A DNA stretch of 64,000 nt from an uncultured Bacteriovoracaceae bacterium (GCA_937952395.1 CALFYV010000090.1:97408-161407), one strand, 5' to 3'; shown: positions 6,251 through 64,000, counted from the stretch's first letter. Notes: a model not told the origin generated them from the sequence alone. A program made the numbers and translations.

Positions 6251-6297
6251 AGTGATAAATAATAATACAACTTGATTCGAAAAGCAATACATAAAAT

Positions 6298-9288: not shown

Positions 9289-10575
9289 ATGAATGATGCT
9301 TTTTACGAAGCGCTTCATGAAATCAAAGGCCAGGATTTATTTCTATGTTGTGATCCTGGTATTGTTGACTTTCGTGGCAAGCAGGCTCTAAATCTATTTA
9401 TTTATTCAAAAGACACACGCCTGAAAATCCCTTTAGGCAGTGATTTGAAATCTATTAAAGAGCTTTTGGGTTCTTTGAAGTTTTTAGATGATGATAATCT
9501 TATTTTAATTGCTTGGGACTTAAAGTCTTTGCTCACGTTTGTACGAGGTAAAGTTGGAAATGATTTTCTAATTGGCAAAAAAATATTTGATTTAAACATG
9601 TTGGAATCTTATTGTGGTGAGAAGAATCCTTGTCCAACAAATTTTCTTGAAGCTAAAAAGCGATTAGTTTCATTAACTAAGCATATTAATTGGGAAAAAG
9701 CTTATCAGGCATATCAAAGTGTTTATCTTCCTTTGATTTTAAATATTCCTAAAATTGAAACATATGGTTTAGCACACAAACAGAAAAAAATAAAAGTTTA
9801 TCCACATTATGAAATAGATGGCCAAATTAATGGCCGTATGAAATGCTCCAATATATCTAGCAATTCTTATAATCCTCACACAATGGCTGAGATTGAAAGA
9901 AACAATCTAAGATGTCCAGGGTTTGATTATAATTTCTTATATTTTGATTTTAAACACATGGAAGTCAATATGCTTCAATGGTTATCAAAAGATGAAGAAA
10001 TGAAGAAAATATTGCTTTCTGGAAAAGATTTTTATGAAAGTGTGTGGGAACTTCTAACGGCAGCACCATGCAACAAAGAGAGACGAGGGCTTTGTAAGTT
10101 ATTTTTCCTACCTGTTTTTTATGGGTTGGGTGCTGAGTCTTTATCGAAAAAGTTAAATTGGCCTGTTGAATCTTGTCGGGGACTAATTAAGAAAATACAA
10201 ATATATTTTCATACTGCTTGGAGTTGGATAAAATCTTATCAACTAGGCAAAGATGGCTCAGTATATGATCATTTTGGTCGTCGTCGAATATTTGACAATG
10301 TTTACAAGGTTAGAAATTTTGTAGTGCAATCGCCTGCCTCATTAGTTTGTTTACACAAATTAGTATTATTGATTTCAAAATTGGATATTGCCGACGTTTG
10401 CATGCATATTCATGACGGTTATGTAATTTCATGTAAAAATGAATTTATACCCAAGGCTTATAAAACTGCTAAGGAAATATTGGAGTCTGAAAATGAGTTG
10501 TATTCAGGCTTGAAATTAAATGTAGATTGTAGAAGAGGAATAAGTTTAAACGAATTGGTTAGTTACAACCTTTAG
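9289..10575 (+). CDS. Minimal family-A (Pol I-like) DNA polymerase, polymerase domain only
   Basis: Motif A DFKHMEVNML, motif B RRGLCKLFFLPVFYGLG, motif C MHIHDGYV. Only 428 aa, and no 5'-3' exonuclease domain is evident. Confidence 0.75.
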   Translation: MNDAFYEALHEIKGQDLFLCCDPGIVDFRGKQALNLFIYSKDTRLKIPLGSDLKSIKELLGSLKFLDDDNLILIAWDLKSLLTFVRGKVGNDFLIGKKIFDLNMLESYCGEKNPCPTNFLEAKKRLVSLTKHINWEKAYQAYQSVYLPLILNIPKIETYGLAHKQKKIKVYPHYEIDGQINGRMKCSNISSNSYNPHTMAEIERNNLRCPGFDYNFLYFDFKHMEVNMLQWLSKDEEMKKILLSGKDFYESVWELLTAAPCNKERRGLCKLFFLPVFYGLGAESLSKKLNWPVESCRGLIKKIQIYFHTAWSWIKSYQLGKDGSVYDHFGRRRIFDNVYKVRNFVVQSPASLVCLHKLVLLISKLDIADVCMHIHDGYVISCKNEFIPKAYKTAKEILESENELYSGLKLNVDCRRGISLNELVSYNL

Positions 10576-20927: not shown

Positions 20928-20980
20928 AATTGCTCCTTTTTAGTTCAACATTTATTATACACAATTTGAGGCAAAAAAAC

Positions 20981-22048
20981 ATGGATTCTGCTAAAATTTT
21001 ATCATTTAGTTATGATCGACGGTTTGGGGTTGAAATGGAGATGAATGCCTTTGATCTCCGGGATTTTAAAACCCATCCGTTGAACAATAAAAACCATGAA
21101 ATGCCTGAAGGTATTTTAGAAGTAGCCAATCATATTCATACAATGACTGGTAATAATGTCGAGGTTAAAGGGTGGCATTCTACCCACAACAATAAAAATT
21201 GGGTTATAAAACCAGATAGTAGTTGTGGTATGGAATTGTGTTCTCCTGTTTCTAAAGGTTGGCCCGGTCTTAAAAATATTTGTCAAGTAGCCGAATCTTT
21301 ACGTTCATTAAGATGCTTGTCTATCGACGACAGATGCAGCTTGCATTTACATGTAGATGTTGCTGATTGCGACCGTAAACAAATTGCTAACATTTTAACC
21401 TATTGGGTTAAATGTGAGAGTGTGTTTTTGGACTCCGTGCCAAACTATCGTAAAAGAAATCAGTTTTGTCAATGTATTGGCATGACTGATTTATTCGATG
21501 TGAACACTCCTTGGAATTCTGATCAAATTATTAGAGCCCTTGGTAATAATAAGTATTATACAGCCAATTGTTATCATTATTTTAAGAAAAGTGACTCAGG
21601 TAGAGCATCAATAGAATTTAGAATTATTGAAAACTATGGTTGTGTTGATCCTTATTTAATCAAAAACTGGATTCGTTTAATTGTTCACTTTGTGGAGTGT
21701 GCAAGAAAAGCTAGCATTCCTTCAGAATATATGCCACATGATCCTTGGTCTGGTTTCTGTTGGCTAGACCCAGAAGATGTAATGAGGTTTCTTGGATTTT
21801 TAGACAACAATCCTTTGTCTAAAGGTATGGAACAAACCAGAAATTGGTTTCTTGCTAGATTGTATAATAACATTTCCAGTAAAGAACGAGTAGAATTGCC
21901 AGGTTTGTGGTCAGAAACAGCCAGAAAAATTGCTAGAGAGCAGTTGTTTGGCATGATGAATGTATTGGGATTAGATAAAAATAATATTCAGGGTTTCTTA
22001 AAACCTGCAAATCGTGAATTGCTTTATTCTAATGAATATAAAAATTGA
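20981..22048 (+). CDS. Amidoligase-family (COOH-NH2 ligase) enzyme
   Basis: FGVEMEM, GMELCSPV, SLHLHVD and SIEFR segments match my recollection of the Amidoligase_2 pattern. Start set to the ATG at 20981. Confidence 0.65.
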   Translation: MDSAKILSFSYDRRFGVEMEMNAFDLRDFKTHPLNNKNHEMPEGILEVANHIHTMTGNNVEVKGWHSTHNNKNWVIKPDSSCGMELCSPVSKGWPGLKNICQVAESLRSLRCLSIDDRCSLHLHVDVADCDRKQIANILTYWVKCESVFLDSVPNYRKRNQFCQCIGMTDLFDVNTPWNSDQIIRALGNNKYYTANCYHYFKKSDSGRASIEFRIIENYGCVDPYLIKNWIRLIVHFVECARKASIPSEYMPHDPWSGFCWLDPEDVMRFLGFLDNNPLSKGMEQTRNWFLARLYNNISSKERVELPGLWSETARKIAREQLFGMMNVLGLDKNNIQGFLKPANRELLYSNEYKN

Positions 22049-30051: not shown

Positions 30052-30591
30052 ATGAAAATTTATATTGTTACCAATGGCACATACTCGGATTATAGTATTA
30101 AAGCTGTTTTTACTGATAAAGAAAAAGCATATAAGTACTTAGAAGATGTTAAATTAGTGCATGGAGACGACAATGCTCAGGTCGAGGAATGGGAAGCAGA
30201 TCAAGAGACAGAAAAAATTCCGAGACAATATTGGATTTCCATTATTTACCTACCCACAGGAGAAATTACAGAACAAGATACTAGTGGTCGTTATTGTTTT
30301 GCTAAACCCAATGATAGAGTGGTAGAATCAACGTGGAAAGCTACCTTTAATGGTAATGGAGATTTTAATGATATTAAAGAATGGATGGGCACTATTCGTT
30401 CTGAAGACTACTGGCCCAATACTGTTAAAGTTCAATCATTGGTTTCACAAGAACATGCGAATAAACTAGCGGCAGAAGCACGACAAAATTGGCTTCGTTA
30501 TTTAGATTCTATAGGAATGACAATGAAGCCTACTGGAAAAAGTTGGCCAGAGTACCATTATGTTTCTTCAGAGGGTGAATCTAAAAATTGA
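30052..30591 (+). CDS. Hypothetical protein (N-terminal domain paralogous to 29070-29261)
   Basis: 179-aa ORF with its own ATG 3 nt after the upstream TAG. Confidence 0.6.
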   Translation: MKIYIVTNGTYSDYSIKAVFTDKEKAYKYLEDVKLVHGDDNAQVEEWEADQETEKIPRQYWISIIYLPTGEITEQDTSGRYCFAKPNDRVVESTWKATFNGNGDFNDIKEWMGTIRSEDYWPNTVKVQSLVSQEHANKLAAEARQNWLRYLDSIGMTMKPTGKSWPEYHYVSSEGESKN

Positions 30592-31232
30592 TTTTTGACT
30601 TTTTTCTTTAGTTTTTGAATCACTTGTTCAGTAGCCACAACAAATTCCCATCCCCTAGCTTCGCAAGCCTGTTTCGCTGAAAACCATTTGTTTTGATTTT
30701 TTTCTAACAGAGTTTGATTAGCAGGCTTGACTTCCCAAACTTCTTTGTGGCCGTCGATAAAAGCTATAAATACATCGGGAGTGTATTGATGACATTGGCC
30801 TTCGTGGATATAGGGGATTTGAAACGGCTCAGCCTCATAAGCCAAGACTTCATGCCATGAGTCAAAGCATTCATAGACAGTCTTCTCGTATCCAGAGCGA
30901 TAGTAGAAATTCTTTTCCATTTTTGTGGAATGATGCCAGCCCTCACGAAATTTAGGTTTTCTTTTCTTTATTTTTCCTTTAGGTGTTACATCTCTCCATA
31001 CGGTAGCTTTTAACATACCTTTTTGTGGAAGTTTTTCTGTTGGGTGCTTCACCTTGAAATGTGATCTAACGTCCCTTACAGGGGCTTTACATCGTTCTAG
31101 TGGACACAAAACATAATCTGTGCCTTCTTCGTGAGTTTCAACAATATGAGAGACAAATTCTTCAAATGATTCAAATTGTCTTGCACATACGAAACATTGG
31201 AATTTTCTTATATTCTTAGGTGTGTTAAACAT
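30558..31232 (-). CDS. C2H2 zinc finger fused to a TnsA-like / restriction-fold endonuclease domain
   Basis: FQCFVCARQFESFEEFVSHIVETH is a C2H2 finger. The C-terminal YRSGYE..LAYEAEPFQIPY..YTPDVFIAF..EVWEVKP matches the TnsA_N-type E..D..EVK pattern. Confidence 0.6.
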   Translation of the reverse strand: MFNTPKNIRKFQCFVCARQFESFEEFVSHIVETHEEGTDYVLCPLERCKAPVRDVRSHFKVKHPTEKLPQKGMLKATVWRDVTPKGKIKKRKPKFREGWHHSTKMEKNFYYRSGYEKTVYECFDSWHEVLAYEAEPFQIPYIHEGQCHQYTPDVFIAFIDGHKEVWEVKPANQTLLEKNQNKWFSAKQACEARGWEFVVATEQVIQKLKKKVKNQFLDSPSEET

Positions 31233-41948: not shown

Positions 41949-42287
41949 TTGCCAATTTATGAATTCCAATGCAAAGATTGTGATTTGATCTATGAAGAAC
42001 TAGTTTCCTTTGATAAAACCGGGAAATACAAGGGCGTTGTTTGTCCGAAGTGTGAATCGAAGAAAAAGTTCAAGCTAGTGAGTAATTCAAATTTCGCTTT
42101 TTCAAATCCTGAAGGCACAGACCGTTGGAATTCCGATAGCCAAGGACATGATTATCGGTTCAAATACAATCTGCCCAATGCTAAAGAAGAACGAAAAATG
42201 GCTGAAAAAACTTCGAAGGTTGGGAAAAAGCCATATAGAGATATTGACGACATTTCGCACGGTCGATATTTTGGTGAAGTTAAATGA
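41949..42287 (+). CDS. FmdB-family zinc-ribbon protein
   Basis: MPIYEFQCKDC...CPKC signature. TTG start. Confidence 0.6.
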   Translation: MPIYEFQCKDCDLIYEELVSFDKTGKYKGVVCPKCESKKKFKLVSNSNFAFSNPEGTDRWNSDSQGHDYRFKYNLPNAKEERKMAEKTSKVGKKPYRDIDDISHGRYFGEVK

Positions 42288-42359
42288 TTTTTCGTTCTTG
42301 AATTCCAAATTTCTGTTTTTTGACATTGCTTTAAATTTGTCCTTCCGATAAGCTCACGA

Positions 42360-44486
42360 ATGCTGAGCAAACCTCCCAGGCAAAGGAATAAAATAATGCA
42401 AGAAGTGACCAAAGAGCTTAATTGGCTATCCGAACAGTTTGATGCTTCTGAGTTTAAGACTCTTCATGAAGAGATGTCTTTCTCTGACTATGTAGATTCT
42501 GTTATCAGAAACCCCAAGCTGGCTCGTTCTGCCTATCAGCGTATCTATGATATGATCATGGATGAGGGGACCACTACCTTTAAGCGTTATCGTAAGACTT
42601 ATACAAATTATAAATTCTTCGATGACGTTGATGTGCCAATTTTCGGATTAGAAGATACGTTGAATGAGTTGGTTCGTTTTATTCGTGGTGCCGCTGGCGG
42701 GTATGGCACTGAGAAGAGAATTCTTTTACTTCACGGTCCTGTTGGTTCTGCTAAATCAACAATCTGTCGCCTGTTGAAGAGAAAGATGGAAAATTATAGT
42801 CGCACGGATGCTGGGGCTTGGTATACCTACAAATGGGTTAATCTTCCCATTGGGCAAGAAGATGGAATTTATACTCATACTTATGATGAGTGCCCAATGC
42901 ACGACGATCCTTTGAAGTTAATTCCTATGAATATTCGTAGGAAACTCTTCACTCGCCTTAACGAAATTCATATGGAGCAAACTCCGGAGAAAGATCGTCA
43001 GGCTCAATATACTCTCAAGTCTGAAGGTGAACTAAATCCTCGCTGCAAGAAATTCATGCAGGAATTGCTGTTGAAGTATGACGGCGATTGGAAGAAGGTT
43101 GTAGAAAACCACATCACTGTGGTTCGTAAAGTTTATTCCGAAGCGGATCGCATTGGAATTGCAACTTTTCAGCCCAAGGATGAGAAAAACCAGGATGCCA
43201 CTGAGCTTACTGGCGATATTGATTACAGCAAGCTTCCTCACTTCGGGGCCGACTCTGATCCCCGTGCTTTCAACTTTGATGGTGAATTCTGTGTGGGCAA
43301 TCGTGGCCTAACCGAATTCATCGAAATGTTGAAGCTCAGCAAAGAATTTCTTTATGATTTGCTGGGTGCCTCTCAAGAACGTTCGATCAAGCCGAAAAAG
43401 TTTGCTCAAATTTCGGTAGACGAAGTTCTCATTGGTCACACCAACGGCCCAGAGTATGAGAAACTTAAGAATGACCAGACGATGGAAGCATTGAGGGACC
43501 GCACGGTGAAAATCGATGTTCCTTATTTGCTACGCTGGTCAGACGAAATTCGTGTCCTATCTCAGGATTATGGACAAGATAAGGTGCGTCAACATATTGC
43601 CCCACACACAATTGAAATCGCTGCCCTGTGGGCAGTGTTGACCCGTCTTAAAAATGATAAAGACAATAAATTGTCTTTGGTCGAGAAGGCCAAGCTTTAT
43701 GATGGCAAATATCTCCCAGGATATACTGAAGATACCGTAAAAGAATTACGGGACAAATATCCTGGAGAGGGCATGGACGCTGGTGTCTCGGCTCGTTATG
43801 TGCAAGATAAAATTTCAAATTGCCTTTCTTCGCACTATGATTACATTAACCCCTTTATGGTCTTGAACGAGATTCGTGACGGACTGAAACATTCTTCGTT
43901 GATTACCAACGAAGAAGATAAGGGCAAGTATGTTGAGTGTGTGGATGCGGTAATGAAGGAATTAGATCAAATTCTGAAGACCGAAGTGCAAAAGGCTTTA
44001 GTAGGTGACGAAGATGCCATCAACCGTCTTTGCACTAATTATATTGATAATGTTATCGCATTCATCAATGATTCTAAGGTCATCAATCCTTACACTCAGA
44101 AAGAGCAAGAGCCGGATGAACGCCTAATGCGTTCCATTGAAGAAAAGATTGATATTCCTGAGGTGGGCGTCGATGACTTCCGCCGCAGCATCGCAGCCTT
44201 CATTGGAACCTTGGCCCAAAAAGGTGAGAAGTTCAAGTGGGACAGTAATGTCGAACTAAAAGACGCCTTACAGGCTAAATTGTTCGAGGATACCAAGGAC
44301 CACATTAAACTTTCGGCCCTAAGCACCTCCGGTGCCAGTGTAGTTGAGCCAGACTTGCAAGAAAAAATCGATGCAATTAAGCAGCGTTTGATCAAGCAAT
44401 ATGGCTATAATTCGAAGTCTGCTGAAGATGTTCTAAACTACGTGGGCTCGATTTTCGCCCGAGGTGATGTGGCTGATGATGATTAA
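42360..44486 (+). CDS. prkA: PrkA/YeaG-family AAA+ serine protein kinase
   Basis: LLLHGPVGSAKST P-loop. The length and the conserved blocks (GLTEFIEMLK, HTNGPEYE) fit PrkA. Alternative start at 42396 (MQEV), preceded by AAGGAA. Confidence 0.88.
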   Translation: MLSKPPRQRNKIMQEVTKELNWLSEQFDASEFKTLHEEMSFSDYVDSVIRNPKLARSAYQRIYDMIMDEGTTTFKRYRKTYTNYKFFDDVDVPIFGLEDTLNELVRFIRGAAGGYGTEKRILLLHGPVGSAKSTICRLLKRKMENYSRTDAGAWYTYKWVNLPIGQEDGIYTHTYDECPMHDDPLKLIPMNIRRKLFTRLNEIHMEQTPEKDRQAQYTLKSEGELNPRCKKFMQELLLKYDGDWKKVVENHITVVRKVYSEADRIGIATFQPKDEKNQDATELTGDIDYSKLPHFGADSDPRAFNFDGEFCVGNRGLTEFIEMLKLSKEFLYDLLGASQERSIKPKKFAQISVDEVLIGHTNGPEYEKLKNDQTMEALRDRTVKIDVPYLLRWSDEIRVLSQDYGQDKVRQHIAPHTIEIAALWAVLTRLKNDKDNKLSLVEKAKLYDGKYLPGYTEDTVKELRDKYPGEGMDAGVSARYVQDKISNCLSSHYDYINPFMVLNEIRDGLKHSSLITNEEDKGKYVECVDAVMKELDQILKTEVQKALVGDEDAINRLCTNYIDNVIAFINDSKVINPYTQKEQEPDERLMRSIEEKIDIPEVGVDDFRRSIAAFIGTLAQKGEKFKWDSNVELKDALQAKLFEDTKDHIKLSALSTSGASVVEPDLQEKIDAIKQRLIKQYGYNSKSAEDVLNYVGSIFARGDVADDD

Positions 44487-44518
44487 TTAAATATCTAAAT
44501 TTGCCTGAAAAATAGAGC

Positions 44519-44578
44519 AAACCGCCATATATAACATTGTCGAGAAACACTTTCGGCAGTGGAAATATATGGCGGTTT
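44519..44578 (+). terminator. Long inverted repeat / terminator-like hairpin after prkA
   Basis: 14-bp perfect arms (AAACCGCCATATAT / ATATATGGCGGTTT), 32-nt loop, followed by GTTTTTGG. Confidence 0.55.
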
Positions 44579-44596
44579 GTTTTTGGTAGTGGTAAA

Positions 44597-46195
44597 ATGA
44601 AAATATGCAGCAAGTGTAAATTAGAACTTCCTTTTGATTCATTTTCAAAGCACAGTCGATCTAAAGATGGTCTTTACTATTGTTGTAAGATTTGTAAGGC
44701 AAAGGAAGATCGAGAATATCGAGCAAGGCATCGAGACAAAATTAAAAAGAAGAAACATTTGTATTATGAGCAAAATAAAGATCATATAAAGTGTAAAACA
44801 GTAAGATATCAGAAACACAATCCTGATAAGGTTAAAGCTTATTCTAAAACAGCAAGAGAAAATCTAAAAATAGAAATATTTAATCATTATTGCAATTGCA
44901 ATATTGAATGTAAAAATTGTGGGCAAAATCAATTGCATTTATTGACAGTTGATCATGTTAACGGTGGTGGTTCCCAACATAAGAGAAGGATCAAAAATCT
45001 TTATTCTTGGATTAAACGAAATAATTTTCCAGAAGGCTTTCAGGTTCTTTGTTGGAATTGTCAATTTAGAAAAAAGAATGAAGAGGCCAAGCCTGAAAAC
45101 CCACAGCCCAATCAAATAAAACAAGCAGAGTATGTTAAAAACATTAAAAAAGAAGTTTTATCACACTATGGAACAACATGCTCCTGCGGAGAATCAGATG
45201 ATGTAGTTTTAACCTTAGATCATATAAATGACAACGGAGCAGAGCATAGAAAAAAATTAGGTCGCAGAGGTTTTAATTTTTATCTTTGGTTGAGAAAAAA
45301 CAACTTTCCAAATGATCCGCCATTGCAAGTATTATGTGCTAATTGCCAATATGATAAGCACAATTTAAAACCTCGTTTATTTAACAGCGAAACACACCTC
45401 CCAGAACACAAAGTACATTTAGAAATTGCTTCTTGGTTAGATTCATTTGGTTTAAAGCTTGAAGATAAAACAATTGAGTATTGTGACTTTTTTTGGCACA
45501 CACAAGTTCCTGAAAGGTATCATTATAATAAATACAAAGAATATTTAGAAAACAATGTTCAATTGATCACTATTTTTGAAGATGAATGGAATGATAGACG
45601 TTCGCAATGTGAGTCTCATATTCTTTCTTTGTTTGGGATAAAAGAAAGAACCGTCTTTGCTAGAAAGTGTTCAATAGTTGATTTAAACAAAGTTGAATTT
45701 AACAAGTTTTGCGATGCTTATCATATTCAAGGTTCTAATAGACTGGGTTTAATTTTTTATGGACTGGAATTTAAAGGCGAGTTGTTGGGGGTTATGTCGC
45801 TGGGACGGCACCACCGACAGGTTAAAACTTTAGTATTAGATCGTTTGTGTTTTAAACGAGGCGTGCAAATTCCAGGTGGCGCAAGCAAGCTTTTTAGCAG
45901 ATGTATAGAATGGGCAAAAATAAATAATTATTCTGATATAATTAGCTTTTCTGATAATAGGTGGAGTTTAGGAGGGGTTTATAAAGCTTTAAATTTTCAA
46001 TTAGACAAAGAACTCCCACCAGACTATAGCTATGTAGATTTAAAAAATGGCGGGAAAAGATTATCCAAACAATCTCAGAAAAAGAAAAACACAAATTGTC
46101 CTTCTGGAATGACCGAAAAGGAATGGGCTTTAGAGCGAGGTTTGGTCCGAATTTGGGATTGTGGTAAAAAGAGATGGGTGTATAATATTCATTGA
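44597..46195 (+). CDS. Double-HNH homing-endonuclease-like protein
   Basis: Two HNH modules (TVDHVNGGGSQH...VLCWNCQ and TLDHINDNGAEH...VLCANCQ) after Cys-rich N-terminal repeats. The C-terminal ARKC...YHIQG...GGASKLF domain resembles those fused to freestanding phage endonucleases. Confidence 0.65.
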   Translation: MKICSKCKLELPFDSFSKHSRSKDGLYYCCKICKAKEDREYRARHRDKIKKKKHLYYEQNKDHIKCKTVRYQKHNPDKVKAYSKTARENLKIEIFNHYCNCNIECKNCGQNQLHLLTVDHVNGGGSQHKRRIKNLYSWIKRNNFPEGFQVLCWNCQFRKKNEEAKPENPQPNQIKQAEYVKNIKKEVLSHYGTTCSCGESDDVVLTLDHINDNGAEHRKKLGRRGFNFYLWLRKNNFPNDPPLQVLCANCQYDKHNLKPRLFNSETHLPEHKVHLEIASWLDSFGLKLEDKTIEYCDFFWHTQVPERYHYNKYKEYLENNVQLITIFEDEWNDRRSQCESHILSLFGIKERTVFARKCSIVDLNKVEFNKFCDAYHIQGSNRLGLIFYGLEFKGELLGVMSLGRHHRQVKTLVLDRLCFKRGVQIPGGASKLFSRCIEWAKINNYSDIISFSDNRWSLGGVYKALNFQLDKELPPDYSYVDLKNGGKRLSKQSQKKKNTNCPSGMTEKEWALERGLVRIWDCGKKRWVYNIH

Positions 46196-46211
46196 ATATA
46201 AAGGAGATATT

Positions 46212-46490
46212 ATGTATCCAAAAATTGTAACAAGAGAAGAATTTAATGAGGCTGTCGAAGCACTGTGGACAGAAATTGAATATCAAAATAATTTAGCTCG
46301 TCGTACATCTGATGAAGCCAAGGACGTTCCCGGTTTTGTGGTTTTAGGAAACCGCTATATTAGAAAAATAGAAGATGACTGGGCTGATCAACCGGGTCCA
46401 GTAGTGGAAGATGCCTTGCATGGATTGCGAAAAGTGGCTACCATATTTCTTCGTGGAATGGTTTATTGCGGCGTGAGACCTAGACAGTAA
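46212..46490 (+). CDS. Hypothetical protein
   Basis: AAGGAG lies upstream of the ATG at 46212. 92 aa. Confidence 0.55.
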   Translation: MYPKIVTREEFNEAVEALWTEIEYQNNLARRTSDEAKDVPGFVVLGNRYIRKIEDDWADQPGPVVEDALHGLRKVATIFLRGMVYCGVRPRQ

Positions 46491-46514
46491 ACTCACCCTT
46501 AAAAAGAGAAAAAA

Positions 46515-47783
46515 ATGCCCCGCAGAATTGAAGAAGATCGTCGTGATTTCCGTGACAGGTATTCAGGACGAATTCGTAGTTCGCTTAAAAAATTCATCAA
46601 CAATGGGCGTATTTTTAGAACACGCCCAAATGGCGGTCATGTTCCTATTACAATTCCTAGGATGGATATTCCTCATATTGTTCATGGCAACAATAAAGAT
46701 GGAGTGGGCCGTGGTGGCGGGGAAGATGGAGATATAATCCAAAAAGGCCCTGAGAAAGGCAAAGGTAAAGGCAATAAAGGTGGCGATGGCACTCAAGAGG
46801 GAGTTGAAATCGCTTTGAATTTGGAAGATGTTTTGCAATTTCTACAACAAGAATTGCAACTTCCAAATCTAAAACCCAAACCAAATGAAGTGCTTGAAGA
46901 AGAAGAAATTAAATATACAAGCATTTCTTTGACAGGCCCTGAATCGTTACGTCATAATCGCCGCACCATGTTGCAAGCGTTAAAACGACAAGCGGCTGCC
47001 GGAAATCTTGATAAATTACATTGGATTCCCGGTTTTTCTCAGCCTGTGAAAATGATAACGCCAATCAACACAGATCGTCGTTATCGCCAATATCGTGTTA
47101 TTCAAAAACCTTCTAGTAATGCAGTAATATTCTTTGCTAGAGATGGTTCTGCTTCGATGGATGAATATAAATGCGATATTGTATCTGATATGTCGTGGTG
47201 GATTGACATTTGGATTAGACGGTTCTATGAGCGAGTTGAACGTTGTTATATTTGGCATGATACTTATGCTCAAGAATGTGATGAAAACAAATTTTATACA
47301 TACCGCTATGGTGGTGGTACTAAATGTTCATCAGCATTCAAATTAATTGCCAAACAGTTTGAAAACAGATTTCCGCCCAACAAATGGAATATTTATGTTT
47401 TCTATTTTACTGATGGTGAAAACTGGAATGAAGATAACAACCAATTAATTAAAACTTTACACGAGAAATTCCCTCCAGAGGTTGTTAATTTAGTTGGAAT
47501 TACCCAGGTAATGGCATATGGCTATGAAAACAGTCTTCGTCAACTTGTAATAAACGAGATGGCGGAAGGATCGTTAAAAGGGGCTAACAATATAAAAACT
47601 ACGGCGGTTGGCCCTGAAATGGCTGGTCCTTCTAATAATCAAAGTGTGACTAATTACAATCCTTGGGGCTGGGGACCAGGCCAATTGACCTCAGATGAGC
47701 GAGATGCTCAAATTAAAAGAGCAATTACTGATATTTTAGGAACTAATCAGTCTAAAAAAGCACGAGCACCAGAAGGTATTTAA
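46515..47783 (+). CDS. yeaH: YeaH/YhbH (DUF444) vWA-like protein
   Basis: N-terminal RRIEEDRRDFRD...KF, and a MIDAS-like ARDGSASMD. Typical partner of PrkA. Confidence 0.82.
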   Translation: MPRRIEEDRRDFRDRYSGRIRSSLKKFINNGRIFRTRPNGGHVPITIPRMDIPHIVHGNNKDGVGRGGGEDGDIIQKGPEKGKGKGNKGGDGTQEGVEIALNLEDVLQFLQQELQLPNLKPKPNEVLEEEEIKYTSISLTGPESLRHNRRTMLQALKRQAAAGNLDKLHWIPGFSQPVKMITPINTDRRYRQYRVIQKPSSNAVIFFARDGSASMDEYKCDIVSDMSWWIDIWIRRFYERVERCYIWHDTYAQECDENKFYTYRYGGGTKCSSAFKLIAKQFENRFPPNKWNIYVFYFTDGENWNEDNNQLIKTLHEKFPPEVVNLVGITQVMAYGYENSLRQLVINEMAEGSLKGANNIKTTAVGPEMAGPSNNQSVTNYNPWGWGPGQLTSDERDAQIKRAITDILGTNQSKKARAPEGI

Positions 47784-49382
47784 ATGTCAAATGATTTTCT
47801 GCATGGCAGTTCTTTGTTGCTAGGCGACAATACCGTTCCCGGCGTGCAAATTCCGGAAGAACTTAAGAAGTTAATTCCTGATATTTTCAAAGCCTGTAAG
47901 GATTTCGGTTTGGATTTTTATCCGACTGTTGTTCAAATGTTGGCTTATGATGAAATTAGTGAAATTGCTTCTTATGGTGGTTTTCCGGTTCGTTATCCCC
48001 ATTGGAAATGGGGTATGGAATATGAGGAATTGCAGAAGGGTTATATGTACGGAATGCACCGTATATATGAATTAGTTATCAATACTAATCCATGCTACAT
48101 TTATTGTTTAGATTCCAATGCTCTTGTAGATAATGTTACTGTTATTGCTCATGCTTTAGGACACAATGATTTCTTTAAGAATAATATTTTCTTCTCCCCT
48201 ACCAGTCAAAATATGATGAACCAATTGGCCAATCACGGCACAAGGGTTCGTAAATACATGGCTCGCTGGGGAAGGAGTAGAGTTACAGATTTCATTGATC
48301 ACTGTTTAAGAATTGAAACCCTTATTGATTTCAGCACAGCATGGGAAAAGAGAAAGGTAAAGCAAGTCACGATCAAAGATAGTAGAAAATATCGTCATCC
48401 AAGACGGTTGGAAACAGATCGTGATTACATGGAACCTTACATCAACACTGAAGAGTGGAAAAACAAACAAAAACAAAAAATTGAAAGAAAAGATGCTTTT
48501 GATGAATTAGAGATTTTCAATAATCCCACCAAGAATATTATGGGATTTTTGCGTGATCATGCTCCGCTCAAAGCGTGGCAGTCAGATGTTTTGTCTATGT
48601 TATATCAAGAGGCTTTGTATTTTGCACCTCAAAGATTGACAAAAATGGCCAATGAAGGCTGGGCCAGTTTTGTTGATTACAACATTATGTGCAAATATGC
48701 TCTGTGCGGATTAGGTCAAAAAACTCCTGATTCTGGAATTATTCAATATTCCAAACACAAGATGGGTGTTTTAGGCGGCAAACATTCGACTAATCCATAT
48801 AAATTAGGTTTTTGTTTATTCCAAGATATTGAAGAGCGTTGGAATAAGGGCCGTTTTGGTACAGAATATGAAGAGTGTGATGATTTAGAGAAGAAGAGAA
48901 AATGGGATACAAATGTTGGGTTGGGACAAGAAAAGGTTTTTGAAGTTCGCAAGCATTATAATGATTTAACGATGCTGGCTGAATTCTTTACTCCTGAATT
49001 TTGCAATAAATATGAGTTTTTTAACTGGAAACGCCATCCAAATGGTGATATCATGTTAGAGAATCGCAATTTCAGGGAAATTAAAACTAAATTACTCCGC
49101 AAATATGCGAATGGCGGCCTGCCAGAGATTTTCTTAGTTGATCCAAATCATCGTGGTAAAAGATATATGCTTCTCCAACATCGTTGGGAGGGTCAAACAT
49201 TACTTCCAAAATATGTAGAAGCTGTAATGCAATCATTGTATTTCTTCTGGAACAATGATGTGTATCTTGCCACTAAAGACAAGGATGGAAATGAGATTGT
49301 TTGGGCTGCCTATGGTGTCGAAGATGGGCTTGTAGAATGCATGACACGGGAAAAATACGAAGAGTCAATGAAACGAAAATGA
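47784..49382 (+). CDS. spoVR: SpoVR/YcgB-family protein
   Basis: IAHALGHNDFFKNN and the length (532 aa) fit SpoVR. The start directly abuts the yeaH stop. Confidence 0.88.
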   Translation: MSNDFLHGSSLLLGDNTVPGVQIPEELKKLIPDIFKACKDFGLDFYPTVVQMLAYDEISEIASYGGFPVRYPHWKWGMEYEELQKGYMYGMHRIYELVINTNPCYIYCLDSNALVDNVTVIAHALGHNDFFKNNIFFSPTSQNMMNQLANHGTRVRKYMARWGRSRVTDFIDHCLRIETLIDFSTAWEKRKVKQVTIKDSRKYRHPRRLETDRDYMEPYINTEEWKNKQKQKIERKDAFDELEIFNNPTKNIMGFLRDHAPLKAWQSDVLSMLYQEALYFAPQRLTKMANEGWASFVDYNIMCKYALCGLGQKTPDSGIIQYSKHKMGVLGGKHSTNPYKLGFCLFQDIEERWNKGRFGTEYEECDDLEKKRKWDTNVGLGQEKVFEVRKHYNDLTMLAEFFTPEFCNKYEFFNWKRHPNGDIMLENRNFREIKTKLLRKYANGGLPEIFLVDPNHRGKRYMLLQHRWEGQTLLPKYVEAVMQSLYFFWNNDVYLATKDKDGNEIVWAAYGVEDGLVECMTREKYEESMKRK

Positions 49383-49702
49383 GTCGCATTTCCGACCACC
49401 TTTTAAATATTACCTTAGATGGCCAATCAGTCCCAGTTTTGGAGTTTTTCAAACTGGACAATGATGGGTATGTTGAGGTTGTTGCGCCCAAGGAGGATGA
49501 AATACCAAGAATAGATATTTATTTATTGGTAAAAGAGTCCCGTATCTATGTCTGGGCTCAAAATGATGAGCAATTAGAAAAAATTAAAGATAGAATTTAT
49601 AGTAAATTTAGCCCGTACACTAATAAGGAGTTTCATTTAATAGAAACTCAAACTACAAAATATGGCAAAATAAGGGAATTTACCTGTAGAATATTAAATT
49701 AA
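49379..49702 (+). CDS. Hypothetical protein
   Basis: ATGA-coupled to spoVR (MSRISDHLL). Confidence 0.5.
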   Translation: MSRISDHLLNITLDGQSVPVLEFFKLDNDGYVEVVAPKEDEIPRIDIYLLVKESRIYVWAQNDEQLEKIKDRIYSKFSPYTNKEFHLIETQTTKYGKIREFTCRILN

Positions 49703-49812: not shown

Positions 49813-50505
49813 ATGCCCACAAAGAAAAAGACGGAGTTAGATCAATTAATAAATGATATTCATTGTCACCATATAAATTATCACACCCGAGATATTTATC
49901 TTCATAGTTCTGGCTATGAGGATGGAGATTCTGAGAGGGGTGTGGAATTTAAAATGGCGACAACTTTTGTAAAGAATTTACATATTTTATTAAACCAAAA
50001 TGCAACTCTGCCCATTCTGGTGCATATGCATAGCATTGGTGGTGTTTGGAATGATGGAATGGCGATGTTCAATGCTATTCGATATTCTACGGCACCAATA
50101 ACTATTTTAGCTTATGCACAAGCCAGTTCTATGACAGGCATTTTGCTGCAAGCCGCCGACAGGCGAATTGTTACTCCTGACTGTGAATTTATGTTACATC
50201 ACGGTTCAGTGTCATTGGAGGACAATTCAATAGCTGTTAGATCGGCAGTGGAAACTAATGAAAGATATTGCCGTCGAATGTTAGAAATATTTGCAAGACG
50301 AGCAAAAAATGCTCAATTCTTTAAGGAAAGAAAATATAGTGAAAGTAAAATTAAAAGCTATATCGACCGAAAAATTAAAGACAAAAGTGACTGGTATTTA
50401 GATGCTGAGGAGGCATTGTACTATGGTTTTGTTGATGAAATACTTGACAAACAAATAGATTTCGATCAGTTGCGAACTGTAACTAAATATAAAGGTAAAA
50501 TATGA
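49813..50505 (+). CDS. ClpP-family serine protease
   Basis: AQASSMTG (Ser) and MLHHGS (His) align with ClpP QAASMG / MIHQP. Confidence 0.72.
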   Translation: MPTKKKTELDQLINDIHCHHINYHTRDIYLHSSGYEDGDSERGVEFKMATTFVKNLHILLNQNATLPILVHMHSIGGVWNDGMAMFNAIRYSTAPITILAYAQASSMTGILLQAADRRIVTPDCEFMLHHGSVSLEDNSIAVRSAVETNERYCRRMLEIFARRAKNAQFFKERKYSESKIKSYIDRKIKDKSDWYLDAEEALYYGFVDEILDKQIDFDQLRTVTKYKGKI

Positions 50506-51454: not shown

Positions 51455-52885
51455 ATGGTTGACATTATTTCAAAAAATGGAGGTAAAAAGGTGGAGATTG
51501 TCGGTTTCGAACATCTCCACCTTTAGCTACACACAGATTTTAGTTTACTAGATGGCTATGCCATGGTGGAGGAACATGCTAAAAGAGCAACTGAAATTAA
51601 TCAAAGATTTCTGTGTGTAACTGATCATGGTGCTATGGGCGCCATACCTCGTCAAATTCGTGCTTGTGAAGAAAATAAAATAAGCCCTATTTTCGGCTGC
51701 GAGCTATACATAAATCCCATACAACCCGAATTCAACACTGAAACCGAGCGACTTCAATTCATTAAAAATATCGATCCTGATATTAAAGCTCAGTTTCGTA
51801 AATCATATCATCTTTTAGCTATAGCTTATAATAATACTGGCTATAGCAATCTTGTTAAGCTTTCTTCATGGGGTTGGACCAAGGGCTTTTATTATCGTCC
51901 TCGGGTTAATCATGAGCAGTTGATGAAATATAAAGAAGGAATTGTTTTTTCATCATGTTGTTATAACGGAGAAATTGGACAAGCTTTTGATAAAGGTGGC
52001 GAAGAAGCTGGCGAGGCGATGTTGGTGAAATATATGAAAATGTTTCACCCACATTTTTATCTTGAGTTTATATTGTTGGATTTTGATAAACAAAAGCCTT
52101 ATAACGCATTTATCATGAAAATGCATGATAAATATGGAATCCCTCTCATCATTAGTCAGGACTGCCATTATACTTATAAAGATGATAGTCACATGCAGAG
52201 TTTGATGTTAATGGTTCAAACTGGCAAGACCATCCAAGATATTCAAAAAGCAAAAGAAGCAGATGAAACCGCCGACTTTTTTGAATTACAGGATAAAAAT
52301 CTTTGGATGAAGTCTGAAGAAGAAATAGATGAAAAGTGGGAATCTGATTATCAACATATTGTTGATTATGAGTTGTTAAAAGAAGCTAAAAGAAATACTG
52401 TTAGAATTTGTGAGTTAGCTCAAGGTGTTGAATTAGACAGATCAATGAAATTGCCTCGTTTTGACGATGCCAACGATAAATTAAAAGAATATACTATGCA
52501 AGGCTTCGCTCAGCGTGGATTGCCAAAAAATAAAGAGTATCATAATCGGATTTTGGAAGAATTATCACTGATTATTCAAAAAGACTTCTCGTCTTATTTC
52601 CTCATACAGAAAATGATGACAGATGAGGCTAGACGAAAGTGTCCAGAATTGTTAGGATGGGGGGACGGGTCTGAAGCTTGCGGTCCAGGTCGAGGTAGTG
52701 TTGGCGGAAGTTTGGTTGCTTATTGTTTAGGCATTACTGATGTTGATCCTATAAAACACGATTTGTTGTTTTCTAGATTTTTAAGTCCAGCCCGTGGCGG
52801 TAAATCAGTTAAGTTAAAGTTTGCCTCTGACCCTATTTCTCAAATAGAACAAGTTGTAAACGCAACAGAGGAATGTCCTTTTTAA
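51455..52885 (+). CDS. dnaE: DnaE (Pol III alpha) N-terminal piece: PHP domain and pre-catalytic palm, with an in-frame TAG at 51524-51526
   Basis: The track ORF starts at 51563, but the same frame upstream reads MVDIISKNGGKKVEIVGFEHLHL-TAG-LHTDFSLLDGYA, which is the first PHP motif. Downstream come GPGRGSVGGSLVAYCLGITDVDP and LLFSRFLSPARGG. The ORF ends about 30 aa later, before the PDxDxDF catalytic motif. Confidence 0.7.
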
Positions 52886-53391
52886 TGATAAAGAAGATTA
52901 AAGTTACGTCTAAATCGCAGGCTAAGGCATTTATTTCTGATGTTCCTTGGGCTGCGATTAGTATTACCACATATAAGGATGACTGGCCGAAATTAAATGG
53001 AACCAAACGGTTAGGTTTATTACAGCTTTGGTTTGCAGATGTGGAATTGGAATACTATTCACTGGCAGATGAAATTTTGTTTAAGCCTGAGCATGCTAAA
53101 CAAATTTATGATTTTGTGAAATCTATGCATGAAAAAAATGATGTTGAATTACTTTTGGTGCATTGTGAGGCTGGTTATTCAAGATCACCTGCTATTGCCT
53201 GTGTATTAGAACAGGCTTTTCTTGGTTTGGAGTCTAAGCTATTTCCGGCAAAATATTTTAATTCTTTTGAAGGCGGTTATTTGAAATATGAACCAAATAA
53301 ACTGGTTCATAAAATAATGATCCAAGAAGGTATACGTTTGGGTCATTTGAAATATTCAGATGAGTTTCAACCATTTGTGACTCCAGAATGA
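52873..53391 (+). CDS. Cys-based (PTP/dual-specificity-type) phosphatase
   Basis: HCEAGYSRS matches the HCx5R(S/T) signature. Confidence 0.7.
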   Translation: MSFLMIKKIKVTSKSQAKAFISDVPWAAISITTYKDDWPKLNGTKRLGLLQLWFADVELEYYSLADEILFKPEHAKQIYDFVKSMHEKNDVELLLVHCEAGYSRSPAIACVLEQAFLGLESKLFPAKYFNSFEGGYLKYEPNKLVHKIMIQEGIRLGHLKYSDEFQPFVTPE

Positions 53392-53558: not shown

Positions 53559-54578
53559 TTAATTCAAGCCCATTTTAGACATAGAGTTCATTAAATTGCT
53601 AGGCTTTCTAGTTGGTTTGGCGAATTTAGATGGTGGACCCATTTCCATATCAGAATCTTCGTCTTCTATTTCATCACCCATCTCATCATCCATGTCGCCA
53701 CTTAGGTCGTCATCGCCTTCATCGTCGAAGTCCATGTCATCATCATCCATGTCATCGCCTTCGTCATTAAATTCTTCATCGCCCATCTCATCATCCATGT
53801 CCATTTCTTCATCTCCCATTTCGCCATCCATGTCCTCTGGAGATTCTTCGTCTTCCTCAGGTTCCATTTTTAATCCCATTGGAGGACCAACAGCTTCTTT
53901 TAGGGCACGAGCAAATCTGCGAGATCGTCTTTCACCATCTTCATTTTCTTCTTCGAATAAATTGGTGAGTTCACTATAAGCTTCTGGATATTCTAAAGCA
54001 GCTTTGAATACTTCGCCTAGAATATTTGCTCTTTTTAATTCGTGCATGAGTTGTTCAACAACTTTTGGACTTTTCTTGCTTAACGCAGCAACGTATCTAA
54101 TTGCTTCTGAAGGATGTGGATGAAACGCTCCTGGCTTAGTTGCGTTAACCATCGGCAAATCTTCTGTTAATTCGATTGTGCCACATTCTTTAACCATGAA
54201 TTCAGCGAATTCTTTGGTAGACATGTTTTTTGTTTTATTAAAGAACTGCTCAGTTTTTGGCAATCCTTTTGGCCATTCATCTTTAATTTCAGTGCCGAGC
54301 GATGTTAATTTAGAATTGCCGCCTTTTGTGTCAGGCGTATACTCTAAATTCTTATCTCCCATATCTGCAAAACCACCAGTTTCAGCTTTTTTTGCGGAAG
54401 CATTTTTATTTGCAGCTTTGTAGGGATTTAAATCGCCTTGGCCTTCGCCTTTTGTTGGTTTTTTAGGGTCTGGACCTTCATAATCGGCAACCAATTTAAC
54501 TTTTGGGTTTCCAGCAAGACCAGTGGCGTTTACGCCGTCTTTTCTTTCTTCGACGTAATTTGTGAATTTTTTAAACAT
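53559..54578 (-). CDS. Protein with FTNYVE leader and an extremely acidic C-terminal region
   Basis: N-terminus is MFKKFTNYVEER. The C-terminal ~100 aa are dominated by D/E/M/G (EEMDMDDEMGDEEFNDEGDDMDDDDMDFDDEGDDD). Confidence 0.65.
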   Translation of the reverse strand: MFKKFTNYVEERKDGVNATGLAGNPKVKLVADYEGPDPKKPTKGEGQGDLNPYKAANKNASAKKAETGGFADMGDKNLEYTPDTKGGNSKLTSLGTEIKDEWPKGLPKTEQFFNKTKNMSTKEFAEFMVKECGTIELTEDLPMVNATKPGAFHPHPSEAIRYVAALSKKSPKVVEQLMHELKRANILGEVFKAALEYPEAYSELTNLFEEENEDGERRSRRFARALKEAVGPPMGLKMEPEEDEESPEDMDGEMGDEEMDMDDEMGDEEFNDEGDDMDDDDMDFDDEGDDDLSGDMDDEMGDEIEDEDSDMEMGPPSKFAKPTRKPSNLMNSMSKMGLN

Positions 54579-55054: not shown

Positions 55055-55403
55055 GGGGTCGTTAGGTTTCGATTCGCAATGAGGTTGAATGTGTGGCATG
55101 CAGTGGTTGATCGAACGGCCACTTTAAAAATCGATCAAGCCTTAACCGGCAATACTTACGCTCAGGCTGCTTAATCAGCCAAGGGTTTTGGGAAGCTAAG
55201 TTAGCTGCGTCCTTAAATCCTAACGAAATGCTAACTGGCTTTAACCCTTGCAGATACAGGTTGAAGTGAGATAAAATGATTCTGCTGGCTCTAAATAACT
55301 TTTGCTATTTGCAGTTTTTAGAGTAAGATTTAGCAAAAAGATAAGCATGTAGAGGCCGCTCGACTAGTTGTAGAAGATGGGGGTTCGATTCCCCCCGACT
55401 CCA
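55055..55403 (+). ncRNA. ssrA: tmRNA (one-piece), CCA not encoded
   Basis: - The 5' GGGGTCG pairs with the 3' CGACTCC, including the G3:U wobble, and is followed by discriminator A.
- T-arm is GGGGG-TTCGATT-CCCCC.
- The conserved TAAGCATGTAG block is present.
- The 5' GGTTTCGATTCGC resembles E. coli GGAUUCGACGGG.
- The tag frame ends ...GGC AAT ACT TAC GCT CAG GCT GCT TAA (GNTYAQAA) at 55174. Confidence 0.88.
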
Positions 55404-55406
55404 CTT

Positions 55407-62843: not shown

Positions 62844-63326
62844 ATGCTTAAACGAATTATTTCTGGCGCTCAAAGCGGGGCAGGTTTAGCGGGATTAAAA
62901 GTTGCTAAAGATTTCGGTTTAGAGACGGGCGGTTCAATTCCTAAGGGGTGGATTACTACTGACGGACCACATCCAGAATACGCTGAATTATATAATATTG
63001 TTGAACACTATAGTCCAAAATATCCTCCACGAACGTTCAAAAATGTTCGTGATTCTGATGGCACTATTCGGCTGGCTTTTAATTTCAACTCTCCAGGTGA
63101 GATATGTACTTTGAAGGCTTTGGATCAATATTTGAAGCCTTATATGGATGTTGATTTGAATAACCCCGGTCCTGCCCAGGAAGTTGCAGATTGGATTGTT
63201 GACAACAGTATAGAAACACTCAATATTGCAGGTAATTCAGAAAAAACCTATAAAGGGACGGAAGAAGCTGTTTATAATTATTTAAAAGAGGTTTTATCTT
63301 TATTGGATTTTAAAGAAAATGATTGA
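62844..63326 (+). CDS. YpsA / SLOG-superfamily (molybdenum-carrier-like) protein
   Basis: IISGAQSGAGLAGLKVAKDFGLETGGSIPKGW matches the IxSGGQTGxD...GGWxPKG pattern, with the Asp replaced. Confidence 0.55.
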   Translation: MLKRIISGAQSGAGLAGLKVAKDFGLETGGSIPKGWITTDGPHPEYAELYNIVEHYSPKYPPRTFKNVRDSDGTIRLAFNFNSPGEICTLKALDQYLKPYMDVDLNNPGPAQEVADWIVDNSIETLNIAGNSEKTYKGTEEAVYNYLKEVLSLLDFKEND

Positions 63327-63537: not shown

Positions 63538-64000
63538 ATGTTAGATGATGTAAGAAATAAAATAATCAAACTATGCCGCACAAGGCAAAAAGAGCTTGGC
63601 TTAGATGACGAAGTTCATAATAATCGTCTGCTCTTAGAAATAAAAGAAATAGACACACAAATTGCCCATGAATATTTCTACGATCTTTATGAGAAACAAG
63701 CCAAGTTTGCTTATAATGAAAATAATCTTTTAGTGGCATATCTTCTTGGTTTGACTGATGATTTTGACATCAATTCAGACCCGACATATATCCAGGGCGA
63801 CATGCCGGATATTGATTCTGACTTTAATCCCATTGTTCGTGACTATCTGAAAAATGAATGGGCTATCAAACAATTTGGCGAAGACAAAGTTTGTGCCATT
63901 GGTAATTACACAACTTTTGGCATTAAATCTTCTTTGATTGATATGGCTCGTGTCCACGGCAAAGATCGTGGAGAAATTCTTAAATTAACCACCAAATTAG
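63538..64000 (+). CDS. dnaE: DnaE (Pol III alpha) polymerase-core piece, 5' partial (continues beyond the window end)
   Basis: Hand translation from the ATG at 63538. NNLLVAYLLGLTDDFD is a degenerate copy of the SLVAYxLGITD block. Then come the catalytic-Asp motif MPDIDSDF and EDKVCAIGNYTTFGIKSSLIDMARV. Not in the ORF track because no stop lies in the window. Confidence 0.75.
   Translation, partial: MLDDVRNKIIKLCRTRQKELGLDDEVHNNRLLLEIKEIDTQIAHEYFYDLYEKQAKFAYNENNLLVAYLLGLTDDFDINSDPTYIQGDMPDIDSDFNPIVRDYLKNEWAIKQFGEDKVCAIGNYTTFGIKSSLIDMARVHGKDRGEILKLTTKL

Follow-up and report, generated by a model that had tools for sequence, protein, structure and literature searches.

What would a very large bacteriophage gain from carrying its own copies of PrkA, YeaH and SpoVR, which are among the most widespread bacterial and archaeal trios of proteins whose biochemistry is still unsettled? 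The question is raised by a 64,000-nucleotide stretch of DNA recorded under an uncultured Bacteriovoracaceae bacterium (GCA_937952395.1, CALFYV010000090.1:97408-161407; hereafter the window, in whose coordinates positions are given), where genes for all three proteins lie between positions 42360 and 49382. The observation itself is correct and well above chance: the proteins are intact, every universally invariant residue is kept, the genes are conserved, and their location is in a phage. The answer that we favor, with confidence only somewhat better than even, is that the triad is a working AAA+/vWA-MIDAS/SpoVR module (MIDAS, metal-ion-dependent adhesion site), which would be made in mid-infection and would act on proteins of the host or of the phage so that a slowly growing host remains productive.

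An earlier note on this DNA had described three full-length genes in the order PrkA, YeaH, SpoVR, and the open reading frames (ORFs) bear this out, as do searches with hidden Markov models, which place all three products in the PrkA, DUF444 and SpoVR families at E-values of 1e-64 to 1e-110. The PrkA-family AAA+ ATPase, also annotated as “serine protein kinase” (42360..44486, + strand; 708 amino acids, or 696 from the start at 42396 used in the public annotation), matches PF08298 (AAA_PrkA, 5.5e-83, residues 39-434), the C-terminal domain PF06798 (1.7e-72, residues 441-694, covering the whole profile, 1-255) and phrog_22605 of the PHROGs collection (4.9e-109). The YeaH/YhbH protein (46515..47783, + strand; 422 amino acids) joins a glycine-rich, disordered N-terminal part to a vWA domain and matches PF04285 (DUF444) at 1e-64 and 219.6 bits. 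The SpoVR/YcgB family protein (47784..49382, + strand; 532 amino acids), which starts at the first base past the YeaH stop codon, matches PF04293 at 5.5e-110 over profile positions 5-405 of 407, and SpoVR_C at 1.2e-06. The genes are co-directional, and the motifs that had been quoted for them (GPVGSAKST in PrkA, DGSASMD in YeaH and HALGHNDFFKNN in SpoVR) are all present in the translations. Against the NCBIfam equivalog cut-offs, PrkA scores 198.1 versus 576 bits for E. coli YeaG (NF011999), YeaH 310.7 versus 388 bits (NF003711), and SpoVR 188.2 versus 679 bits for E. coli YcgB (NF008737); with scores so far under the cut-offs, the three are family members rather than YeaG, YeaH and YcgB orthologues in the narrow sense.

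Are these proteins likely to be functional? Invariance was judged in alignments of phage and cellular homologues reaching down to 18-25% identity. In PrkA, the Walker A residues G126, P127, G129, K132 and S133 are invariant across nine phage and cellular sequences, as is a second set, N314, G316, E319, E322 and K325, in the phage and cellular alignment. In YeaH, the MIDAS residues D210, S212 and S214 together with T269 and D300 are unchanged from the window phage through the Thermus phages and the Ralstonia jumbo phage RsoM2USA; in SpoVR, the invariants are H73, E96, V98, H123, G126, H127 and E291-G292-x-A294, the last within a NEGWA motif. This retention bears directly on the idea that the phage proteins are decoys or dominant-negative subunits that poison the host triad and so block a dormancy that would abort infection. 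Bacteria with mutations in the triad show improved growth in certain nutrient regimes (10.1101/072470), so the host pathway restrains growth and its blockade could benefit a phage. A decoy, however, would not be expected to keep every universal invariant, from Walker A and the NRGxxEFxE segment of PrkA to the MIDAS of YeaH and the His and Glu residues of SpoVR; the phage has retained the full set of subunits and not a single one, and the PADLOC models of defense and counter-defense match none of the triad proteins (nor the ClpP-like protein, zinc-ribbon protein or endonuclease encoded nearby). We therefore consider a decoy role very unlikely.

Structural comparisons give an uneven picture of the three. 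PrkA is of the long type (~690 amino acids) and matches the solved, apparently unpublished structures 9xip, 9xiq and 9xir (“Serine protein kinase”, 692 amino acids) at an E-value of 9.9e-209; Pfam finds no Lon protease domain in it. For YeaH, the AlphaFold2 model has a core (residues 200-370) with a predicted local distance difference test score (pLDDT) of 80-92 and a disordered, glycine-rich first 100 residues. Its sequence profile has no match in the PDB, and the vWA relationship is recovered by fold search only, Foldseek returning 109 PDB vWA matches at E<=0.001, the MIDAS domains of Rea1/MDN1 included. The SpoVR model is usable (pLDDT 78.7, predicted template modeling score 0.76). Foldseek found nothing significant for it in the PDB, the top match being anthrax lethal factor at an E-value of 0.29 and a template modeling score of 0.10, and a diverse SpoVR profile had no match among PDB sequences even at E<=10; with no PDB relative by fold or profile, the idea that SpoVR is a zincin or has another hydrolase fold was dropped.

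Does the DNA belong to a phage at all? All three proteins are 100% identical to proteins of QQVH01000006.1 (546,492 bp), from assembly GCA_003352295.1, which was deposited as “MAG: Crenarchaeota archaeon” (MAG, metagenome-assembled genome). Taken at face value, this label would make the window cellular DNA, either from an archaeal MAG, in line with the deposit, or from a host and joined to other DNA in a chimeric assembly, and no virion gene (capsid, portal, terminase or other structural gene) was found within the 64 kb to contradict it. The gene order nevertheless recurs, with PrkA, YeaH and SpoVR identities of 67%, 52% and 57%, in LR756511, a curated 595-kb record deposited as an uncultured phage genome, and on IMG/VR viral contigs of up to 572 kb (9 PrkA-anchored and 59 DnaE-anchored loci, on some 60 contigs). 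The replication genes of the window include those for a gp32-like single-stranded DNA-binding protein, a UvsX-like recombinase and both topoisomerase II subunits, all of T4 type, and a DnaB-like helicase; nucleotide metabolism is represented by thymidylate synthase, dihydrofolate reductase and dCMP deaminase. Homing endonucleases and inteins likewise argue against a cellular origin, as do the uniformly low GC content and the strand-coherent genes. There is, further, a complete transfer-messenger RNA (tmRNA) gene of bacterial type at 55055-55406 (+ strand; RF00023, 111.5 bits against a gathering threshold of 47; ARAGORN tag GNTYAQAA). Archaea are not known to have tmRNA, and the gene thus favors a bacterial host and disfavors the archaeal label. 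Taken together, the synteny, the recurrent gene order, the phage-type genes and the tmRNA indicate that the “Crenarchaeota” label is almost certainly a binning error and that the window, judged by its gene content, is part of a huge (~546 kb) phage of bacteria; a cellular source is extremely unlikely. The earlier note had likewise taken the carrier of the triad to be a phage. A sister protein cluster lies on a 340-kb contig labeled “Proteobacteria bacterium”, and both records appear to be contigs of huge phages that were binned with cellular MAGs. Megablast of an 8.6-kb region against 50,697 phage records gave no match, and the relatives were found by protein-level searches only.

How firmly is the triad held by the clade to which this phage belongs? 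Because a search anchored on PrkA would be circular for the prevalence of the triad, a second survey was anchored on the N-terminal fragment of a split DnaE (51563-52885, + strand; 440 amino acids), which yielded 36 non-redundant loci with a full upstream flank. Such a survey of related phages had been proposed in the earlier note, and it finds the triad in 31 of the 36 loci (25 whole, 6 cut by the flank) and no trace of it in the other 5. Median identities to the window are 66% for PrkA, 60% for SpoVR and 56% for YeaH, to be compared with 60.5% for the DnaE fragment itself, 54% for a ClpP-like protein, 49% for a zinc-ribbon protein and 43% for a sugar kinase; by this measure no protein in the neighborhood is as well conserved as PrkA. 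In a large protein database each triad protein has more than 120 clusters at 54-81% identity, many of them on contigs of 200-670 kb, and in most relatives the triad genes are packed almost end to end. These comparisons show a block that is vertically inherited in the clade under strong constraint. The 2-kb bin covering much of PrkA (42001-44000) has the top GC content of the window, 0.417 versus 0.32-0.40 in the other bins; since PrkA has been passed down throughout the clade, a strong constraint on its amino acids, and not a recent transfer, may account for this.

A second mark of importance comes from inteins. In relatives, SpoVR is often encoded as a single ORF of 867-1373 amino acids and PrkA once as one of 1083, and these long ORFs contain Intein_splicing, Hint and LAGLIDADG domains (Pfam). 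With related loci designated by L numbers, the SpoVR cases are L053 (3746-7867), L057 (4687-8793), L050, L052, L071 and L077, and the PrkA case is L068 (1544-4795); each of these SpoVR proteins has one or two LAGLIDADG inteins and the PrkA a single one, in every case at an invariant motif, and the triad genes of the window are themselves intein-free. In window numbering, the PrkA site lies between F310 and C311, three residues ahead of the N314-x-G316-x-x-E319-x-x-E322 motif, and the two SpoVR sites lie between N100 and T101, directly after the invariant E96 and V98, and between A294 and S295, within the invariant NEGWA motif. The SpoVR of the unrelated huge phage LR756504 (L097, 15288-17195) carries an independent mini-intein between the G of NEG and a following C, two residues from the A294–S295 site. 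As the targets of inteins are typically the best conserved positions of proteins that matter to the cell, the sites found here support the functional importance of the triad; in SpoVR they point to the region of H123-x3-H127 and E291 as the likely active center. SpoVR inteins are not a new class, as InBase already holds one in a SpoVR-like protein of Chloroflexus aurantiacus (10.1101/2025.01.02.630785).

The triad had been called complete, and so it is in its genes and their order; it is not contiguous in the window, where a 2028-bp gap between PrkA and YeaH, overlooked in the earlier note, is filled by a homing-endonuclease insertion. The gap opens with a long hairpin and T-run directly past the PrkA stop codon (44514..44583, + strand), resembling a terminator or attenuator, with perfect 15-nucleotide arms and a minimum free energy of -47 kcal/mol (z = -9.65 versus shuffles), and one of a kind within the window; the terminator scan had excluded it through its limit on loop size. 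A free-standing ORF for an HNH-type homing endonuclease follows (44537..46195, + strand; phrog_3339 5.9e-61, phrog_559 HNH 1.3e-49), with a probable start at ATG 44597 that gives 532 amino acids, versus 552 from 44537, and with HNH/endonuclease VII-like repeats in its N-terminus according to PHROGs. A small ORF (46212..46490, + strand; 92 amino acids, or 109 from GTG 46161), present in the public record, matches neither a Pfam nor a PHROG family and lacks homologues in the related loci. No paralogue of the endonuclease occurs in the window, tblastn over 94 related loci recovered the gene only in L012 (the same DNA), and it is thereby ruled out as a repeated element. Since it has no homologue in the relatives, is absent from their PrkA-YeaH junction, and their PrkA-YeaH gap is often just 12-150 bp, the cassette is a selfish element that recently entered an otherwise compact operon and damaged neither prkA nor yeaH. 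Other relatives have different insertions at the triad junctions, including methyltransferase and glycosyltransferase-like genes; in LR756504 (L097, 13336-15020), which is not a relative, two DNA methyltransferase-like ORFs of 294 and 264 amino acids stand between YeaH and SpoVR. Comparably strong structures lie 3′ of PrkA in many relatives (for example L005, L007, L010, L011, L043 and L080), though not in all, and relatives with very short PrkA-YeaH gaps have no such strong structure after PrkA. The hairpin may act as an attenuator that sets the ratio of PrkA to YeaH and SpoVR expression.

Is a phage-borne triad new? A claim of novelty would be overstated, for it is preceded by phiYS40, TMA, MN1, the Lalka phages, RsoM2USA, four huge phages (the LR75xxxx records) and three PHROGs families, one for each triad protein; phage-borne triads are already on record and the window is one more example. 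In the Thermus phage phiYS40, deposited in 2006, a “conserved bacterial protein” (DUF444), SpoVR, a hypothetical protein and a “serine kinase” stand in a row, and the same set occurs in the Thermus phages TMA, YS40_Isch, phiLo and MN1 and in the Lalka phages. The triad of RsoM2USA is ORF30-28, where the genes are merely listed (PMC8504454), and a YeaG-like triad is present in three further huge phages, LR745206, LR756502 and LR756504. A full-text literature search returned no paper analyzing a phage-borne triad, only gene lists and one virome study, which found spoVR to be the most abundant “sporulation” auxiliary gene (PMC8940887); a large comparative study of jumbo phages makes no mention of the triad (PMC7824862). 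The triads fall into at least three phage groups, which differ in gene order and are 25-32% identical to one another; since both order and identity differ between the groups, we infer that the whole module was captured independently at least three times.

One of these phages supplies timing. By RNA-seq, genes 12-16 of Lalka27a, of which 12-14 encode the vWA, SpoVR-like and PrkA-like proteins, are middle genes with their own promoter; the triad is flanked by late portal and minor-head genes and by late TerL, and the short list of Lalka27a virion proteins includes none of the three (10.64898/2026.04.20.719267). Might the triad, then, be a virion-assembly chaperone, like the MoxR AAA+/vWA pairs to which a part in assembling tails or heads has been ascribed in the archaeal virus ATV and the group 2.2 jumbo phages? 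An AAA+ protein with a vWA partner is the same architecture (PMC7824862), the triad of Lalka8 and Lalka27a sits between portal/minor-head genes and TerL, that of phiYS40 adjoins terminase, and the ClpP-like neighbor in the window matches head-maturation protease families of PHROGs. Expression of the Lalka27a triad in the middle phase, when the genes on either side are late, tells against this, as do the absence of its products from the (short) virion list and the setting of the window-clade triad, whose neighbors serve replication and nucleotide metabolism and which has no structural gene around it in the 64 kb of the window; cellular homologues (51-55% identity), moreover, work in cells that make no virions. 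The middle timing and the genomic setting thus disfavor a purely structural role, and we hold an assembly chaperone to be quite improbable.

The working module that we favor would operate as follows. PrkA would be the AAA+ motor, YeaH a vWA/MIDAS adaptor whose metal site holds on to a partner protein, and SpoVR probably a catalytic or effector subunit that depends on metal and is centered on its H-x3-H and NEGWA motifs, the three acting jointly, as in bacteria. The triad would be made in the middle phase of infection alongside the replication and nucleotide-metabolism genes, and would remodel or degrade host (or phage) proteins, so that the infected cell could be held in a starvation-tolerant yet productive state through the long cycle of a huge phage in what is presumed to be nutrient-poor water. 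In bacteria, the triad genes show cofitness of r>0.7 in six species, with species-specific phenotypes (10.1101/072470), and the co-inheritance of the triad in 31 of 36 relatives is consistent with joint action of the products. The “deliberate rewiring” of the host's stress or dormancy decision that the earlier note had proposed is plausible, fitting both the conservation and the middle timing in Lalka27a.

In the window clade, a ClpP-like neighbor may also take part. This putative serine peptidase (49813..50505, + strand; PF00574 3.6e-22, 79.6 bits versus a cut-off of 20.2) starts 430 bp 3′ of SpoVR and has genuine ClpPs as its best PDB matches (4.4e-11), with Ser, His and Asp aligned; it scores 64.6 versus 249 bits against the ClpP equivalog, lies far below the cut-offs of the subfamily models as well, and also matches head-maturation protease families (phrog_94, 3.9e-25). 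The gene had been noted as following the triad closely, and it follows SpoVR in the window and in 15 of the 31 triad-bearing relatives, while none of the 5 triad-less ones has it. Within the clade it is missing in LR756511, and outside the clade it is not adjacent to the triad in the Thermus phages, RsoM2USA, LR745206, LR756502, LR756504 or the cellular operons examined, so that ClpP adjacency as a general rule was rejected in favor of a feature confined to part of one phage clade. It is nonetheless conceivable that triad and ClpP-like protein together form an ATP-dependent phage protease, with PrkA as unfoldase, YeaH as adaptor and the ClpP-like protein as chamber, directed against specific host regulators or defense proteins. 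B. subtilis PrkA degrades casein in an ATP-dependent manner (PMC9512850), the intact Ser-His-Asp gene keeps company with the triad as just described, and ClpP genes of jumbo phages have been proposed to act against the host (PMC7824862). This association is only suggestive (15/31 versus 0/5, hypergeometric p ~0.05), half of the triad-bearing relatives lack the partner, the match to head-maturation families offers the ClpP-like protein another occupation, and the protease activity of B. anthracis PrkA was negligible (PMC13001217); a dedicated protease machine accordingly seems unlikely to us.

Several considerations weigh against the working module itself and keep our confidence in it modest. 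The timing evidence comes from a distant Thermus phage (~30% identity). The biochemistry of PrkA is disputed, with reports of kinase activity set against an ATP-dependent protease (PMC9512850), and one study, which treats PrkA as an AAA+ ATPase, detected neither kinase nor protease activity (PMC13001217). As no solved or structurally similar relative of SpoVR was found, its catalytic role is a guess from the invariant His and Glu residues. The triad is highly prevalent and yet dispensable cargo, given that 5 members of the clade do without it and carry unrelated cargo in the same slot. In the window, the hairpin and the cassette may uncouple PrkA from YeaH-SpoVR expression, and a scan for sigma-70 promoters performed at chance (42 sites versus 40.3 expected).

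A bolder proposal is that the module is a general ATP-driven remodeling or degradation machine that sets the growth state, joined by the ClpP-like protein, rather than an accessory of sporulation or starvation signaling, that a clade of huge phages spread over the world relies on having a copy of its own, and that the intein sites mark the active centers. We think this rather unlikely as a whole; if it were true, the intein sites (F310–C311 in PrkA; N100–T101 and the NEGWA–S junction in SpoVR) would be the first handle on SpoVR catalysis.

The remaining genes of the neighborhood bear on the triad to varying degrees. Directly upstream of PrkA is a gene for a small Zn_ribbon_8 (FmdB-like) protein (41949..42287, + strand; PF09723 8.1e-10), which holds that position in 29 non-redundant relatives. 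It was rejected as a fourth member of the triad and is probably not functionally tied to it, because it is retained where the triad is missing, in L035 (6600-10000) and L038 (2800-9900). In these two loci the slot before dnaE is occupied by FkbM-type and other methyltransferases, a glycosyltransferase, an alginate lyase and an FGE-sulfatase-like protein, which marks the interval as a hot spot for cargo. A 107-amino-acid ORF that overlaps the SpoVR stop codon (49379..49702, + strand) is in the public record and has neither a Pfam or PHROG family match nor a homologue in the relatives. Further downstream, the phosphatase-like ORF at 52873-53391, called a Cys-phosphatase in the earlier note, does contain an HCxxGxxRS motif (as HCEAGYSRS); its Pfam scores are sub-threshold (DSPc 24.2 bits versus 33.5, Y_phosphatase 18.2 versus 20.9) and it stands next to dnaE in just 2 relatives, and for these reasons it is not linked to the triad and was rejected as the partner of a PrkA “kinase”.

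The fragment of DnaE (DNA polymerase III alpha) used as anchor comprises the PHP domain and the start of the NTPase domain and stops just ahead of the PDIDxDF palm motif; the continuation, with PDIDSDF, lies 10.8 kb downstream (~63640-64000, + strand) and runs off the end of the window. Between the two parts are the phosphatase-like ORF, an acidic ORF, the tmRNA, an M14-like peptidase, both topoisomerase II subunits, an AAA ATPase and a circularly permuted YpsA SLOG protein (62844-63326, + strand). Most relatives have the short N-terminal fragment; the DnaE of LR756511 is undivided (1179 amino acids). The acidic protein (53559-54578, - strand; 339 amino acids) has an extremely Asp/Glu-rich C-terminal half and no family match; it is conserved in many relatives, where it likewise lies past the DnaE fragment and is encoded on the other strand. 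Elsewhere in the window are an aspartate/ornithine carbamoyltransferase (5393-6313, - strand; PF02729 1.2e-40), a stand-alone family A DNA polymerase domain besides the split DnaE (9289-10575, + strand; PF00476 4.8e-17), an amidoligase-like protein (20930-22048, + strand) and a TnsA-like endonuclease with a zinc finger (30558-31232, - strand).

What, then, does this locus contribute? In itself, the window adds one more example and a mislabeled public record, and no new principle. The added value lies in the high prevalence and unusual conservation of the triad in one huge-phage clade, the inteins at key motifs, the repeated capture and the correction of that record. The complete trio has been captured by several unrelated phage lineages, and one global clade conserves PrkA above part of its own DNA polymerase, which argues that the module is generally useful for the control of cell state and is not specific to sporulation. 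Phage copies are, in addition, compact and self-contained versions for expression and study, and the culturable Thermus and Ralstonia phages are systems for deletion, whose phenotype could be read as burst size in starved versus growing hosts.

Comparison with known systems places the triad more precisely. Among phages, LR756511 is a true relative, with the same neighbors as well as the identities given above. The Thermus phages, in contrast, have the order YeaH-SpoVR-PrkA, 22-33% identity to the window and a triad inside the head/packaging region, and RsoM2USA, LR745206, LR756502 and LR756504 are of the YeaG-like type, at 24-27% identity. The cellular module (prkA-yhbH and spoVR in B. subtilis; yeaGH and ycgB in E. 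coli) belongs to the same Pfam families, its invariants are kept in the window, and the order of the window triad is that of most bacteria; the closest cellular operons, in Bdellovibrionota and Planctomycetota, reach 51-55% identity for PrkA, 31-37% for YeaH and 39-44% for SpoVR. The window triad differs in being virus-encoded and interrupted by a homing endonuclease, and the regulation of the cellular module by RpoS, NtrC or sigma-E cannot apply to it. With the Lon and ClpXP-type proteases it shares the ATP-dependent proteolysis claimed for B. subtilis PrkA (PMC9512850) and a ClpP-like gene nearby, whereas PrkA is without a Lon protease domain and the ClpP-like protein scores far below the equivalog. 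With the AAA+/vWA-MIDAS pairs, namely the MoxR-vWA systems such as RavA-ViaA, CbbQ-CbbO and BchI-BchD as well as Rea1/MDN1, the window shares an AAA+ gene beside a vWA gene with a complete MIDAS; PrkA, however, is not of the MoxR family, having its own AAA_PrkA and PrkA C-terminal domains, and SpoVR has no counterpart in these systems. The likeness is thus one of mechanism and not of family, and it suggests, by analogy, an ATP-driven remodeling of a MIDAS-bound partner.

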